From: Giardia intestinalis
Taxonomy: Eukaryota
NCBI GenBank assembly: GCA_000002435.2
Contig: CM018793.1
Direction: 5' to 3' (one strand)
Length of the DNA stretch: 64,000 bases
The notes under the pieces were generated by a model, which was not told where the DNA came from, did no database searches, and saw nothing but the letters and a program-made list of their open reading frames with translations. The position numbers and the translations under genes were made by a program. Below, piece after piece: positions 5,719 through 28,456 of the stretch; the stretch's first letter is position 1, and every line of letters starts with the position of its first letter.

Positions 5719-6192
5719 TTAGATAGGGAAATACCTAACGCGCAACAGGGTAAGGCCTGCAGCGACTAAGGAAATAGCAATAAATACTGACATTCCCACT
5801 GGGATAGCTATGGCAATCTCCACCGACCCCGTCAGTTCAGCCAGCAGAAGAAGCAAGCCCAGGAAGAGCAAGATGCACACACCAAATTGGGGGAAGATTA
5901 TTCCTATCAAGGTAACAACCCACGGTCTACAATTGGGTATCCACTTCATTGGGCGTACTTTTCTGTACATGTGGATTAGGGTAACTGCGTCGGAGATAGT
6001 TCCTATTGCCATAACTCCTACTATTACGAACAAGCAGTATATGATCCCGTATCCAGAGAGTCCATGGTCAACGTTCTGCGATAGAACAATTGAGGTTACA
6101 CACAGAGTCACCAGTTCAAATAAACCCAAGTGCGTTGTCATTAGTTGCTTTTCGATCTTGTGAAGGCGTTGATAAATCCACTGTTCGTGCAT
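5719..6192 (-). CDS. Small multi-pass membrane protein (about 4 predicted TM helices), function unknown
   Basis: 157-aa ORF with an ATG start. Four long hydrophobic stretches (LGLFELVTLCVTSIVL, GIIYCLFVIVGVMAIGTI, WVVTLIGIIFPQFGVCILLFLGLLLLLA, IAIAIPVGMSVFIAISLVAAGLTLL). Compact spacing to both neighbours. Confidence 0.35.
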   Translation of the reverse strand: MHEQWIYQRLHKIEKQLMTTHLGLFELVTLCVTSIVLSQNVDHGLSGYGIIYCLFVIVGVMAIGTISDAVTLIHMYRKVRPMKWIPNCRPWVVTLIGIIFPQFGVCILLFLGLLLLLAELTGSVEIAIAIPVGMSVFIAISLVAAGLTLLRVRYFPI

Positions 6193-6239: not shown

Positions 6240-7316
6240 TTAGCCTTGCTCGACAAAGATCGTTTCGCGTTCTAGGATAGCAATATCGTTTTCTAAATCG
6301 GCAAGCCTTTGCTCCAGCCACATCTTCCTGTTCTGCTGCCCAAAGGTTTCCTGAACCACTTTGAGCTGCGTGGTATACTCTTCGTTCAGCAACTTCCAGT
6401 TCGCCTTGATGCCTGCTAAAAGCTGCTCCTTCTCGACTGGATCGAGCATATAAGCCATCTTTTGTACCCCGCCCTTGTACCTCTCCTCTATCTTTTGGAT
6501 TGTTTCCTGCTCTGCAGCAACCTGCTTCTTAATTTTAGCCAGGTACTTTGGCGTCTGACCATACCCTTCTTTCTCTGTCCAGTCCATGTCGGCTTTATCA
6601 GTTGGAGGGGGCACCATTACGGTTGCGTTAATAATATTGGCCCTTACGAAGTTCTTGTTGGACCGCAACCCAGTTATTGGTACTGATTGTCCATCTGGCG
6701 CTATCGCTCTTTCGTTCTTCGTGTACTTGTCATTCACCTTGGGCTCAAGTGGCCCCTCGCATGAGTCCATACATCCCCTTCTACCGCATGTATCCGGTCC
6801 CACGTCGCCAGCACTGCATGTGCCCCCCACCAAGCAGTGGCACGGAGAGTCTCCTGTACACTGACAAGCACCCCCGTTCTGACAATTGCAATTGCCTCCA
6901 CACTCACAGCTGTGGCCGTGAGCGTTTGCTGGGCTTGCATCGTTGGCCCCATCATTTATGTTGTCTATAGACGAAGTGGGGCCAGCTCCTATACGCCCAG
7001 CTTTATAGTAGTGTTGACGATAGACAGCGGGTTTGCGGGGAAGAGGGTCGTGCTCGTCGTAATCCCAACGCTTTGGTTGAGGAAGCGGAGGATTACCCGA
7101 TCCCTTTTTAAGCCAATTAGTATGGTCTGCTGGGTTAACCTTCGCAGGACCCAGGGTTTTATGCATATGCTTCGGGACTGTGCAGTATTCCTTTGGAAAT
7201 CCAGACTGATAGAGGCGTTTCTTAGGCATAGCCGCGCACGCATCAGCGGCTGAAGGCATGTACGCCTCTATTTCCAAGCGCTGGTCTGTGTTCGCTAGGT
7301 TATAGATGGACTCCAT
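6240..7316 (-). CDS. Enkurin-domain protein (flagellar/ciliary) with internal Cys/Gly-rich metallothionein-like segment
   Basis: The C-terminus ...TPKYLAKIKKQVAAEQETIQKIEERYKGGVQKMAYMLDPVEKEQLLAGIKANWKLLNEEYTTQLKVVQETFGQQNRKMWLEQRLADLENDIAILERETIFV matches the enkurin domain pattern. The start was moved from the track's 7481 to the in-frame ATG at 7316 (MESIYNL), which is preceded by caaaattcaaaaaATG. The longer ORF would overlap the divergent BolA gene. Confidence 0.55.
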   Translation of the reverse strand: MESIYNLANTDQRLEIEAYMPSAADACAAMPKKRLYQSGFPKEYCTVPKHMHKTLGPAKVNPADHTNWLKKGSGNPPLPQPKRWDYDEHDPLPRKPAVYRQHYYKAGRIGAGPTSSIDNINDGANDASPANAHGHSCECGGNCNCQNGGACQCTGDSPCHCLVGGTCSAGDVGPDTCGRRGCMDSCEGPLEPKVNDKYTKNERAIAPDGQSVPITGLRSNKNFVRANIINATVMVPPPTDKADMDWTEKEGYGQTPKYLAKIKKQVAAEQETIQKIEERYKGGVQKMAYMLDPVEKEQLLAGIKANWKLLNEEYTTQLKVVQETFGQQNRKMWLEQRLADLENDIAILERETIFVEQG

Positions 7317-7343
7317 TTTTTGAATTTTGAGGCGCGAAATAAA
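7317..7343. promoter_or_regulatory. About 27-bp AT-rich bidirectional initiator region between divergent enkurin-like and BolA genes
   Basis: The sequence ...ccattttttgaattttgaggcgcgaaataaaATG... has AT-rich tracts immediately 5' of both start codons, the typical Giardia promoter/initiator architecture. Confidence 0.5.
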
Positions 7344-7619
7344 ATGTCTCTGTCTGCTGTGGAGAAGCACAACACGACCCTTAGCACCATTCGGGAGCGT
7401 CTGAAAAACGTTTTTCCAGACGCCAAACTTATCAAAGTTATCGACAATACGCCCCCGCAAAGTGTTGGTAAGGGAGCTCATGTCACTTTACAGATCAGCT
7501 CTCCCGACTTCAAAGGCCTGACTCTTATTCGACGCCATAGACTGGTTAGTGCGGTAGTTGATGATCTCGTTGAGTCTAATAGAATTCATGCGATATCTTA
7601 CCTGCTTGAGGATAAATGA
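7344..7619 (+). CDS. BolA-like protein
   Basis: MSLSAVEKHNTTLSTIRERLKNVFPDAKLIKVIDNTPPQSVGKGAHVTLQISSPDFKGLTLIRRHRLVSAVVDDLVES has the BolA fold signature (helix-turn-helix, ...HxLxIxS..F.G...RH). 91 aa. Start is at the ATG following aaataaaATG. Confidence 0.75.
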   Translation: MSLSAVEKHNTTLSTIRERLKNVFPDAKLIKVIDNTPPQSVGKGAHVTLQISSPDFKGLTLIRRHRLVSAVVDDLVESNRIHAISYLLEDK

Positions 7620-25666: not shown

Positions 25667-27508
25667 ATGTACCTGTTATATGAGGCCGCGTCTGGCTTAG
25701 CGATGTTCAAGGTTTTGGACGAAAGCAAGCTTAAGGCCGCCGACCTGGTCGGGGCAATGATGCGCACAAGTAGTGACGTCCAGAAAATAGTTTCCCTTGT
25801 CTCATTTTCAAAGTTTCCAAGCGTCGAGGGTGCGTTAGCCACACAAACCTCAACCTTTGAGAAGGATGTGAGCGAGGAGCTAAAAAAGTTTGTGGAGAAA
25901 CACTTTGTGAACACCGTAGCCAAGAAGGATGCGTCCGAAAAGCTCCTGGTCCAGGACCCTCACATGGTTACCGCCCTCAAGGATGTCTACGGGGTCCGTG
26001 CTGCATTTAATGACATAGTTGTTGAGCTGTCTAGGGGGATACGTACGCATCTGGCCTCCATTCTCCCTGATTTTGATCAAGAACACGACAGCTCAATGGC
26101 GATGGGGCTTGCACACTCCTTTTCTCGCTACCGCGTCAAGTTCAATGCTGACTCTATAGATATCATGCTTATTCAAGCCATTGCTTTAATTGACGACACT
26201 GAGAAGGATATCAACCAGTTTGCCATGCGACTTCGTGAGTGGATGGTTTGGCACTTCCCCGAGCTGATTACTATCGTACCAGATAATATAGACTATGCCA
26301 GGACTGTAGTCGTGCTCCGGGACAGGAGGCATCTCGAGGAGTCGCTCACAACGTCTGGCCGCGAAAAGTTCATAAAGGCCCTTAACAAAGCGTCTAAGGA
26401 TCAAGCTTATGCCATTATATCTGCTGCTAAGACATCTGTTGGCACGGATATTACTGACCAGGACTCCGACAGAGTTGTCCACCTGGCTGAGGAGCTTCTT
26501 TCTTTGGTCTCATACCGCGAGGAGTTGCATGAGTACATTGAGGCACGCATGCTTGCTGTTGCACCCAATTTCACCCGCATTGTCGGGTCCATCGTCGGCG
26601 TCCGTCTTCTGGCCAAAGCGGGAAGTTTGCTCAACCTTGCCAAGCTCCCCGCATCCACCTTGCAGATTCTTGGCTCAGAACGTGCACTTTTCCGTGCCAA
26701 GAAAATGCGATCCAAGCAGACGCCCAAATATGGGTTTATCTATCACGCTGCGCTTGTGGGAAAAGCATCTGCAACCAATCGAGGGAAGATGGCACGTGTC
26801 GTAGCAACAAACGCATCTCTTGCTGCTCGTGTGGACGCTCTCTCGGAGTCCTCTAACACCAGCTTTGCTAAAGGAAAGCTTGAGAAGATAAACGCGTCTC
26901 TGCGCTTCTATGAAGGGGACAAGCAAGCTCGCTCAAACAGAAAATCTATTGCTTCACAGAAGATGGAAGCATACAGGCGCGGAGTGGCAACAGGATATGA
27001 AGGGAAGGGGGACATGAAGCTTTCGAAGGAAACAGCCCCTGCTGCTGAGCCCAAAAAGACTCGAATGACGGAGGCGTTTGAGGAAGACACTGGGTTCACG
27101 CAGACCAAGGCCTCACAGGATAAGGGCTCAAGAAATAAGGAGAATGCACAAGAACGACAAGACGATGCTATGCCAGCGCCCTTAGAGCCTTTATCGAGTG
27201 CTGCGAAGAAAGACGAGCCCGTGGCACCAATTGAGGTGGATGCGGAAGACACCAATGACACCAAGGACGCTAAGGAGAAGCATAAGGAGAAGAGCAAGGA
27301 AAAGCACAGAGACAAGGACAAAGAAAAAGAAAAGCACAAGGAGAAGGAGAAGGATAAAGAGAAGCACAGGGACAAGGATAAGGATAAAGAAAGAGATAAG
27401 GAAAAACATAAAGACAAGGACAAGCACAGGGATAAAGACAGAGAAAAAGACAAGGAAAAGCATAAGAGCAAGGATGACGATAAGAAGAACAAGACGCACT
27501 CCAAGTAA
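25667..27508 (+). CDS. NOP58: Box C/D snoRNP protein Nop58 (Nop5/Nop56/Nop58 family) with KKD/E-rich C-terminal tail
   Basis: The N-terminus MYLLYEAASGLAMFKVLDESKL matches the NOP5 N-terminal domain. It is followed by the Nop domain (...GSERALFRAKKMRSKQTPKYGFIYHAALVGKAS...) and a charged KDKEKEKHKEKEKDKEKHRDKDK tail. Confidence 0.85.
   Translation: MYLLYEAASGLAMFKVLDESKLKAADLVGAMMRTSSDVQKIVSLVSFSKFPSVEGALATQTSTFEKDVSEELKKFVEKHFVNTVAKKDASEKLLVQDPHMVTALKDVYGVRAAFNDIVVELSRGIRTHLASILPDFDQEHDSSMAMGLAHSFSRYRVKFNADSIDIMLIQAIALIDDTEKDINQFAMRLREWMVWHFPELITIVPDNIDYARTVVVLRDRRHLEESLTTSGREKFIKALNKASKDQAYAIISAAKTSVGTDITDQDSDRVVHLAEELLSLVSYREELHEYIEARMLAVAPNFTRIVGSIVGVRLLAKAGSLLNLAKLPASTLQILGSERALFRAKKMRSKQTPKYGFIYHAALVGKASATNRGKMARVVATNASLAARVDALSESSNTSFAKGKLEKINASLRFYEGDKQARSNRKSIASQKMEAYRRGVATGYEGKGDMKLSKETAPAAEPKKTRMTEAFEEDTGFTQTKASQDKGSRNKENAQERQDDAMPAPLEPLSSAAKKDEPVAPIEVDAEDTNDTKDAKEKHKEKSKEKHRDKDKEKEKHKEKEKDKEKHRDKDKDKERDKEKHKDKDKHRDKDREKDKEKHKSKDDDKKNKTHSK
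27245..27500 (+). repeat. Imperfect tandem coding repeat (about 18-24 nt units; K-D/E-K-H dipeptide periodicity) forming the Nop58 lysine-rich tail
   Basis: The units aaggacaaagaaaaagaaaagcacaag / gagaaggagaaggataaagagaagcac / agggacaaggataaggataaagaa... repeat here. They generate spurious low-complexity ORFs on the opposite strand (26908..27504, 27191..27544). Confidence 0.7.
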
Positions 27509-27520
27509 ATAACTTAAAAA
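27504..27520 (+). promoter_or_regulatory. 12-bp intergenic spacer: Nop58 polyadenylation signal (AGTAAAT overlapping the TAA stop) immediately followed by the A-rich initiator of the Aurora kinase gene
   Basis: ccaAGTAAATaacttaaaaaATGccg: the AGTRAAY motif overlaps the Nop58 stop, and the next ATG (27521) follows after an A/T-only spacer. Confidence 0.45.
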
Positions 27521-28456
27521 ATGCCGCAGCACTTGGTACCCCACACAGGGACAGGAAAGCGCACTACAATAGAGGACTTTGAGATTGGACGCTTTCTTGG
27601 TCGTGGAAAGTATGGCTTGGTTTACCTAGCACGTGAACAGTCCTCCAAGTTGGTGGTTGCCCTTAAAGTGCTGTATAAATCCTACATCAAATCGGAGCGT
27701 GTTGAGGGCCAGGTGCGCAGGGAATTGGATATACATCTTAATGTGAGGCACATAAACATAATTCGCTTGTATACTTGGTTCCAGGACGAGACCCGAGTCT
27801 TTTTGGTCCTCGAAGTGGCTCCGTACGGCGAGCTTTACCAAAGGTTACAGCAGTTCGGGAAGTTTCCTCTACCCGTTGTAAGCAAGATTATTCGAGACGT
27901 GGCACAGGCGATACAGTATCTTCACAGAAAGAACATCTTCCATAGGGACCTTAAGGCAGAAAACATCTTGATTTGCAAGGGGAAAGAGACCAAAGAGCAC
28001 ACAGATGCGCACAATTCAGATGACTCCATTTCTGTGCATGAACACGAGCTAGTCCGAATGGCACACTACACATACAAGATTGCAGACTTTGGATGGTCCG
28101 TGCACCATCCAACCCACGGTGGCCGACGACGCACCCAGTGCGGAACTCTCGACTACCTTCCCCCGGAGGTCATGCTCGGACAATCTTATGATAAGGCTTG
28201 CGATATCTGGTCACTCGGAGCCCTGTGCTATGAGCTCATCTGTGGCACCGCGCCCTTCTACCACGACGAAATCAAGATCACACGACAAAATATAGCCAAC
28301 GTAGAGTATAGCTTTACTAAGGACTTCAGCCCAGCCAGCAAAGATTTCATCCAGCGGATGTTAATTAGAAGCCCAGAGGCCCGGATCTCCATAGAGGATA
28401 TCCTCCGGCATCCATTCCTGAGACAGACAGATCACAGGAGTAAGGTCCCCAAGTAG
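27521..28456 (+). CDS. AURK: Aurora-family Ser/Thr protein kinase
   Basis: GRGKYGLVYLAREQSSKLVVALKVL (Gly-loop/VAIK), HRDLKAENILI, KIADFGWSVH...RRRTQCGTLDYLPPEVM (activation loop typical of Aurora), WSLGALCYELICGTAPF. It contains an insert of about 29 aa between the catalytic loop and DFG. Confidence 0.85.
   Translation: MPQHLVPHTGTGKRTTIEDFEIGRFLGRGKYGLVYLAREQSSKLVVALKVLYKSYIKSERVEGQVRRELDIHLNVRHINIIRLYTWFQDETRVFLVLEVAPYGELYQRLQQFGKFPLPVVSKIIRDVAQAIQYLHRKNIFHRDLKAENILICKGKETKEHTDAHNSDDSISVHEHELVRMAHYTYKIADFGWSVHHPTHGGRRRTQCGTLDYLPPEVMLGQSYDKACDIWSLGALCYELICGTAPFYHDEIKITRQNIANVEYSFTKDFSPASKDFIQRMLIRSPEARISIEDILRHPFLRQTDHRSKVPK

Follow-up and report, generated by a model that had tools for sequence, protein, structure and literature searches.

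CFAP106/enkurin is among the few microtubule inner proteins (MIPs) conserved in all motile cilia and serves as a hub for lineage-specific luminal proteins. In the diplomonad Giardia intestinalis WB, this protein is encoded by GL50803_16996, which lies on the minus strand (6243..7316, stop codon 6240..6242, 358 amino acids (aa)) of a 64,000-nucleotide stretch of contig CM018793.1 (assembly GCA_000002435.2), referred to here as the window. The conserved body of the protein is split by an insertion of ~108 aa that carries a Cys/Gly-rich core. The insertion occupies a defined point in the sequence of an enkurin orthologue; it is restricted to Giardia, translated, maintained by purifying selection and without homologues. 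The core may form a metal-thiolate cluster that acts as a structural knob near protofilaments A12/A13 in the lumen of the B-tubule, a composite reading that stands about evenly poised. The luminal site, the metal binding with its stoichiometry and the structural role are argued from sequence and from analogy with known systems.

An enkurin orthologue with an internal insertion

Assignment of GL50803_16996 to the enkurin family relies on profile and structure-database searches. The Pfam Enkurin profile PF13864, which has a gathering cut-off of 23.6 bits, scores 67.7 bits (E=1.3e-18) over aa 253-351 (window 6264..6560), covering profile positions 1-91 of 92. A search of the PDB with the whole protein returns 12 matches (E 1.9e-19 to 5.8e-7). 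The nearest solved proteins are FAP106/ENKUR/CFAP106 chains from cryogenic electron microscopy (cryo-EM) of doublet microtubules of Chlamydomonas, Tetrahymena, sea urchin, mammals and trypanosomatids, and the C-terminal part aligns to FAP106 residues 84-234. Removal of the insert yields a collinear alignment with better E-values against the sea-urchin, mammalian, Chlamydomonas and Tetrahymena chains, the best being sea-urchin 8snb_2A (E=2.2e-20). Residues 48-246 of the insert-deleted query then pair with residues 43-252 of 8snb_2A, and residues 69-246 with FAP106 residues 61-234.

Outside the insert, the full length is collinear with chains 6u42_5R, 8snb_2A, 7rro_h and 8g2z_0V, and the motifs 'TLGPAKV', 'PPLP', 'RKPxVP...PxxGL.SNKNF' and 'W..K..Y' are held in common; the Giardia protein differs in its ~108-residue internal insertion with the Cys/Gly-rich core. 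Trypanosomatid CFAP106B and 9e2g_2G (370-374 aa) are also enlarged, but through the N-terminal part and not by an insertion of the Giardia type. The motif [FHY]xWxxKxx[FHY], used as a density signature of FAP106 (PMC6994238), corresponds to MDWTEKEGY in Giardia, in which W, K and Y match and the first position is M. On the profile match and the collinear alignment, GL50803_16996 is the Giardia orthologue of FAP106/ENKUR/CFAP106. The Tetrahymena orthologue in PDB 8g2z (chain 0V) is named 'DNA polymerase delta C4-type zinc-finger protein', probably an inherited mis-annotation; no Cys cluster is visible in its aligned part.

Structural studies define the setting in which the orthologue is expected to act. 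FAP106 forms the 'tether loop' of the inner junction, with P20-A148 of its N-terminal half ordered on protofilaments A12/A13 and helices H3/H4 wedged between B9/B10 (PMC6994238). CFAP106 is counted among the universal core MIPs (PMC7617938), and FAP106 is an assembly hub for lineage-specific MIPs in Trypanosoma brucei (PMC10460401). An initial annotation of the window, made from the sequence alone, described enkurins as adaptors of transient receptor potential (TRP) channels and calmodulin. This is an older view; structures show an inner-junction MIP, and neither the canonical IQ motif expression [FILV]Qxxx[RK]Gxxx[RK] nor a relaxed form of it finds a match in the Giardia protein. The IQ motif is likewise not conserved in Chlamydomonas FAP106 (PMC6994238) and therefore does not define the family.

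The protein is divided into the following parts, in which nonsynonymous divergence is abbreviated pN and the predicted local distance difference test score of AlphaFold is abbreviated pLDDT.

7023..7316, minus strand: conserved N-terminal part, aa 1-98, with PLPRKPAV as its last residues; with the insert removed, it aligns to the N-terminal halves of ENKUR/FAP106
6909..7022, minus strand: linker 1, aa 99-136, of low complexity, fast-evolving by pN and variable in length; AlphaFold pLDDT 34-39
6759..6908, minus strand: Cys/Gly-rich core, aa 137-186, CxCxGxCxCxxGGxCxC-x5(9)-CxCxxGGxC-...-RGC-xDSC; 12 Cys and 11 Gly in 50 aa
6816..6908, minus strand: four CxC pairs and one further Cys within the core, aa 137-167; nine Cys, all invariant
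6699..6758, minus strand: linker 2, aa 187-206, conserved within G. intestinalis only
6243..6698, minus strand: C-terminal conserved part, aa 207-358, with the 'VPITGLRSNKNF' helix, the 'MDWTEKEGY' motif and the Pfam Enkurin domain (PF13864); helix pLDDT 80-93

In alignment with relatives, the insertion (~108 aa, aa 99-206) separates two otherwise contiguous strings, R-K-P-x-V and P-x4-P-x-x-G-L. By sequence alignment its position corresponds to FAP106 residues ~86-88, about ten residues ahead of the 'GL(T/R)SNKNF' helix. The Cys residues of the core are spaced 1,3,1,5,1,5,1,5,9,4,3, which gives four CxC pairs, no CxxC and no CC. The spacings of the CxC run, 1,3,1,5,1,5(9),1,5, are common to G. 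intestinalis and G. muris, such that nine Cys occupy 31 aa in the former and 35 aa in the latter. The core resembles four copies of a CxC(xx)GGx unit; Tandem Repeats Finder detects no DNA-level tandem repeat beneath these four units. Cys make up 22-24% of the core in G. intestinalis (11-12 in 50 aa) and 17% in G. muris. Hydrophobic residues are nearly absent, with few aliphatics; the five cores of the G. intestinalis type contain no F, Y or W, and those of the G. muris type contain two aromatics (Y, F). The linkers are more variable: linker 1 is 17 residues shorter in G. muris, and linker 2 retains 75-85% identity within G. intestinalis and 15% to G. muris.

Structure prediction distinguishes the insert from its flanks. 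In an AlphaFold2 model of the full-length protein (20-sequence alignment), the helices of the enkurin domain reach pLDDT 80-93 and aa 98-208 only 33-51. Predicted alone (7 sequences), the insert has a mean pLDDT of 44.5, with a range of 33-53 over both models, and displays only a weak hairpin at pLDDT ~50.

Part of what the initial annotation stated about this region is borne out. A Cys/Gly-rich stretch is indeed present inside a minus-strand open reading frame (ORF) with an enkurin domain, the label agrees with the Pfam match, and the quoted peptide occurs in the window letter for letter. This peptide was given as 55 aa at 6756-6920; the string is 57 aa long and spans 6750..6920 (minus strand), so that the interval fits its first 55 aa only. 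The 14 Cys attributed to the segment are the total of the whole protein, the segment itself having 12 (with 13 Gly and 3 His in 57 aa). The CxC arrangement is real, with four pairs, but the accompanying CxxC is not found even once, the other spacings being CxxxC, Cx4C, Cx5C and Cx9C. Of the residues said to be interspersed, Gly holds up, with six invariant positions, and His mostly does not: one of the three (CHC) is conserved, only within G. intestinalis, and 'HGH' is variable. The region is GC-rich as claimed (58.8% locally against 48.9% for the window), and several overlapping plus-strand pseudo-ORFs of 92-138 aa do occur as mechanical by-products.

Distribution, selection and genomic setting

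The insert is found throughout the sampled diversity of Giardia. Within G. intestinalis, assemblages A (WB, DH), B (GS and others) and E (P15) all carry it, as do two variants of a further G. intestinalis-like lineage, G. muris and a G. muris-like sequence, amounting to seven distinct lineages, and it is recovered from independent assemblies that include the chromosome-level genomes of G. muris and WB. The conservation in sister species that the initial annotation proposed to examine therefore holds for G. muris and for every G. intestinalis assemblage recovered, and its statement that enkurins normally lack such a module agrees with the absence of one from every other enkurin found. These comprise the closest non-Giardia relatives found, P0005 and P0006/P0056, and ~20 further enkurins of 249-291 aa from choanoflagellates to fish.

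The two closest relatives bear on the origin of the insert. Over 224 shared columns, P0005 and P0006/P0056 are 62-64% and 58% identical to Giardia, compared with 75% between G. intestinalis and G. muris and ~35% for all others, and both branch outside the pair of G. intestinalis and G. muris in a neighbour-joining tree. Their outgroup position is read from these pairwise identities and from a neighbour-joining topology without bootstrap values for the key deep clades. P0006 adjoins an orthologue of the gene that flanks the G. muris enkurin (33% identity, E=1e-37) and is a positional orthologue because of this common neighbour. Most simply, the insert would have been gained once, in the Giardia stem from which G. 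intestinalis and G. muris descend. The two lineages without it (enkurin at L001 6001-6750, SRR31929897, and at L002 2772-3563, SRR14944320, the latter also in a JGI metagenome as P0056) have a genomic GC content of 56-59% and 62-64%, and may be undescribed close relatives of Giardia.

Sequence searches reveal no source for the insert. When 1.84 billion representative proteins were searched exhaustively with an HMMER profile, the sole match was the representative of the Giardia enkurin cluster. A word-indexed homology search with the insert found no candidates, a weak negative in that it also missed the insert's own family. At the level of sequence, the insert is an orphan module with no detectable homologue.

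Selection on the insert is assessed by comparing pN between regions in place of the ratio of nonsynonymous to synonymous rates (dN/dS), because synonymous sites are saturated (synonymous divergence, pS, 0.5-0.9). Between assemblages A and B, pN is 0.046 in the N-terminal part, 0.307 in linker 1, 0.094 in the core and 0.014 in the C-terminal part; over the comparisons between assemblages it ranges from 0.31 to 0.36 in linker 1 and from 0.094 to 0.14, about one third, in the core, with pS saturated at 0.7-0.85. From assemblage A to G. muris, the divergence of linker 1 is in effect neutral (pN 0.53, pS 0.57), and the core has a pN of 0.31 and a pS of 0.79. The third codon position dominates substitutions in the core (8/2/24 by codon position for A vs B, 10/6/26 for A vs the cluster-3 lineage), conserved Cys codons interchange TGT and TGC with the residue kept, and no Giardia intron signals are present in the core region.

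Constraint on the core is concentrated on two residues. Across the seven lineages, ten of the 12 Cys never vary, compared with 9 of the 53 positions that are not Cys (Fisher p=2.5e-5), and Cys (10) and Gly (6) account for 16 of the 19 invariant columns of the insert alignment (p=1.7e-6 for the enrichment of Cys and Gly together). The Cys total is 11-12 in every lineage and odd (11) in four of the seven. In G. muris (enkurin at L003 4001-5029), the Cys of 'RGC' is replaced by Phe and an extra Cys appears ten residues after the 'DSC' Cys, a swap that may represent compensation preserving a fixed number of ligands. Because pN is low relative to the linker, third positions take most of the changes, and Cys and Gly stay invariant despite saturated pS, the core is under purifying selection centred on these residues; its origin as a neutral expansion, an artefact or an intron is effectively excluded.

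The boundaries of the gene are supported by several lines of evidence. The longest ORF form on the minus strand, 6240..7481, has 413 aa, and the true gene is shorter: its 358-aa product is identical to XP_001708024.2, annotated as 'Enkurin superfamily protein' of G. intestinalis WB. The ATG at 7316 (MESIYNL...) agrees with the starts of homologues P0001, P0003 and P0004 from other Giardia lineages, and an A-rich initiator typical of Giardia genes lies directly 5' of it. Xu et al. 2020 shortened GL50803_16996, making room for a divergent BolA-like gene (PMC7000408). Since the homologue starts, the initiator, the identity to XP_001708024.2 and the re-annotation agree, the true start is almost certainly the ATG at 7316. 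Older and assemblage B annotations (P0002, P0038, P0039; 398-417 aa) begin 40-59 residues further upstream, inside the BolA-like region (window 7317..7481, minus strand), and an over-long enkurin start of this kind is probable in the assemblage B entries.

The neighbours of the gene are partly conserved. The BolA-like gene GL50803_0060288 (~7344..7619, plus strand) is arranged head-to-head with enkurin, with 27 bp between the start codons. BolA proteins have a role in iron-sulfur (Fe-S) and thiol metabolism. The same head-to-head pair is found in G. muris (L003 3695-3982 / 4001), in which the order WW-domain gene, BolA, enkurin is kept, and in the cluster-3 lineage (L004), and is not seen around enkurin in the relatives without the insert (L001, L002); the adjacency is probably a coincidence of a compact genome. 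Directly 3' of enkurin, an ORF for a multi-pass hydrophobic protein of 157 aa (5719..6192, minus strand) keeps its position in G. intestinalis lineages (L004 5132-5605 / L005 5247-5720), and a different gene of 260 aa occupies its slot in G. muris. Elsewhere in the window, a six-frame scan identifies one other stop-free stretch of 50 aa with at least 11 Cys. This second 'Cys-rich' ORF (27273..27563, minus strand), with LSLSLC repeats and up to 11 Cys per 50 aa, is rejected as a pseudo-ORF, the antisense of the Lys/Glu/Asp-rich repetitive tail of a Nop56/58-like gene (25667..27508, plus strand).

The published record on the protein is brief. The product of GL50803_16996 has been detected by proteomics (PMC5070761), a detection at the level of the whole protein and not of insert peptides. 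Literature on the gene identifier, on enkurin in Giardia and on Giardia MIPs and cryogenic electron tomography holds no functional or structural work on the protein that we found, and no publication describing the insert was found in the literature searched.

A proposed metal-thiolate cluster and its alternatives

The proposed history and mechanism of the insert combine its position with its composition. An insertion of ~108 residues would have arisen de novo in the Giardia stem within the extended N-terminal half of enkurin, some ten residues N-terminal to the small helix by which alpha-tubulin of protofilament A12 is bound. Since the flanking residues correspond to the FAP106 segment that is ordered on A12/A13, the module would be luminal, suspended from the wall of the A-tubule by tethers of ~38 and ~20 residues and projecting into the lumen of the B-tubule at 16-nm intervals. 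The core would wrap a polynuclear metal-thiolate cluster, Zn3Cys9 or Zn4Cys11, alternatively with Cu(I). Such a fold in a reducing cytoplasm is suggested by the Cys content of 22-29%, the CxC pairs, the Gly turns and the lack of aromatics in G. intestinalis, and the core is not expected to fold alone because it has almost no hydrophobic residues. The lack of a confident metal-free fold in the AlphaFold models is in line with a segment that needs a cofactor or disulfides to fold. The resulting rigid knob could dock on tubulin or on neighbouring inner-junction proteins as a structural element rather than a free metal buffer, and would represent a lineage-specific structural elaboration of the MIP network. 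Four lineage-specific MIPs of trypanosomatids have zinc sites (PMC7617938).

A number of observations weigh against this proposal. Three insert sequences searched against Pfam at E<=10 match 0 families, with no metallothionein, CXC, pre-SET or zinc-finger profile among the results, and the PDB sequence search with the insert at E<=10 yields 0 matches. The alignment behind the structure predictions of the insert is shallow, with 7 insert sequences, and the low AlphaFold confidence fits intrinsic disorder equally well. The putative metal binding is deduced from composition, the luminal position from a sequence alignment and the text of a paper rather than from coordinates, and the timing of the gain from protein distances alone. 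The literature searched yielded neither a structure of the Giardia doublet microtubule nor an axonemal localisation of GL50803_16996.

Some of the same features would suit disulfide bonding. Invariant Cys, conserved Gly-rich turns and the lack of a hydrophobic core are expected of a disulfide knot of the knottin or granulin kind, or of an intermolecular cross-linker, bonded to adjacent copies or to other MIPs, that covalently stiffens the long cytoplasmic axonemes, and flexible linkers of ~38 and 20 residues could bring such modules to their partners. Adjacent CxC pairs, however, are typical of bridging thiolates and not of disulfide knots and count against this explanation, as do the odd Cys total (11) in four of seven lineages and the failure of AlphaFold to produce a confident disulfide-rich fold. 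Giardia microtubule organelles are described as hyperstable (10.1101/361105), but synthesis and assembly take place in a reducing cytoplasm in which cysteine is the main thiol (PMC3916229). Disulfide bonding is, on these grounds, an unlikely basis for the conservation of the core.

The compositional evidence for a metal-thiolate cluster applies in equal measure to a redox or metal sensor, in which oxygen, nitric oxide or metal stress would oxidise the cluster or make it give up its metal and so alter the mechanics of the inner junction and flagellar beating. Giardia is a microaerophile that encounters fluctuating oxygen and nitric oxide (PMC3916229), and loss of ENKUR alters the waveform and Ca2+ responsiveness of mouse sperm, as quoted in PMC6994238. 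In contrast, no evidence ties MIPs to signalling of an acute kind, access to the doublet lumen is poor, and swimming does not require most MIPs, which are structural (PMC7617938). Sequence cannot separate sensing from pure structure. A sensor is more improbable than disulfide bonding.

Dense Cys and the historical view of enkurin as a channel adaptor would also recall a palmitoylation patch of the cysteine-string kind that anchors the protein to the flagellar membrane or a channel, or else an Fe-S cluster site, for which an Fe-S-related BolA-like gene 27 bp from the start codon, only in insert-bearing species, could be cited. Both are very unlikely: every solved enkurin homologue is a luminal MIP, cysteine strings normally have CC runs and the insert has none, Fe-S motifs such as CxxCxxC...CP are absent, and adjacency is weak evidence in a compact genome. 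The least credible of the alternatives is that the segment has no function and is a disordered expansion of low complexity, or that it is an unspliced intron or an artefact of annotation or assembly. The low AlphaFold confidence, the near-neutral linker 1 (A vs G. muris) and the lack of homologues would fit, but for the core this is already largely refuted: the insert is found in independent assemblies of at least seven lineages, the frame is kept, third-position substitutions dominate, intron signals are lacking, ten Cys and six Gly never vary although pS is saturated, and core pN is ~1/3 of that of the linker.

The implications of a metal-thiolate cluster depend on how far the proposal is taken. 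Giardia is a parasite known to disturb the zinc status of its host. A doubtful but far-reaching extension is that the insert forms the first polynuclear cluster of the metallothionein type in a core MIP, holding ~3-4 metal ions per 16 nm along the lumen of every Giardia doublet and acting as a metal or redox switch of inner-junction mechanics or as a significant intracellular store of zinc or copper bound to the cytoskeleton. If metal-bound, the insert would bring the chemistry of metal-thiolate clusters into the lumen of microtubules and, as a Giardia-specific feature without a counterpart in host enkurin, would bear on selective targeting and on the reading of future cryo-EM maps of the Giardia axoneme. 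Should it be a structural knob and no more, it adds modestly to the known lineage-specific elaborations of MIPs.

Comparison with known cysteine-rich and luminal systems

Metallothioneins, with about 15-30% Cys in CxC, CxxC or CC motifs and few or no aromatics, provide the nearest compositional parallel. Their clusters are M3Cys9 in the beta type and M4Cys11 in the alpha type, and CxC-rich patterns occur in the plant type-1 and fungal copper forms. The Giardia insert is similar in its 22-29% Cys, its CxC pairs 3-5 residues apart and its many Gly, Asn and Ser; its nine invariant Cys would match the M3Cys9 beta cluster and its constant total of 11-12 the M4Cys11 alpha cluster. It differs in that the module is internal to a 40-kDa structural protein and not a small free polypeptide (<10 kDa), and matches no metallothionein family of Pfam. 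The metallothionein-like label of the initial annotation thus survives as a description of composition (22-24% Cys, four CxC pairs, Gly-rich, no aromatics in G. intestinalis) but not as family membership (0 Pfam families). Its second label, zinc-ribbon-like, fails for want of CxxC knuckles. Zinc ribbons and zinc knuckles are rejected as models, as no lineage contains a CxxC and AlphaFold gives a weak hairpin with pLDDT ~50.

Zn3Cys9 domains also occur within larger proteins, as in the pre-SET domain of SUV39-type methyltransferases and the CXC domains of MSL2, EZH2 and Tesmin/TSO1. These are short Cys-rich segments that fold only around a trinuclear zinc-thiolate cluster and serve as rigid structural or docking elements. 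The Giardia insert shares with them a short segment in which nine Cys, some of them in CxC pairs, are conserved; it differs in the lack of a profile match, in Cys spacing and in its probable location in the microtubule lumen as opposed to chromatin. The insert may therefore be likened in composition to both metallothioneins and CXC/pre-SET domains, and is a member of neither family.

Within Giardia, the VSP and HCMP surface proteins are an obvious comparison, being high in Cys and containing strings of the Gly-Gly-x-Cys kind. CxxC motifs are the basis of these secreted or membrane proteins, whereas the enkurin insert has no CxxC. Derivation of the insert from these families is rejected on this ground and because the profile search matched only the enkurin cluster.

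The closest parallel in location is found in trypanosomatids, in which zinc-binding DMIPs and the FAP106-dependent 'MIP A12' densities are parasite-specific luminal additions around a conserved inner junction (PMC7617938, PMC10460401). The additions in trypanosomatids are separate proteins, whereas in Giardia the novelty sits inside the core MIP; the putative polynuclear thiolate cluster would also differ from ordinary single zinc sites. The insert shows a parasite customising the doublet lumen by altering a core protein itself and not by adding a new one. Lineage-specific elaboration of MIPs, in some cases with bound zinc, is already well known; the insertion of a Cys cluster into a core MIP is the new part.

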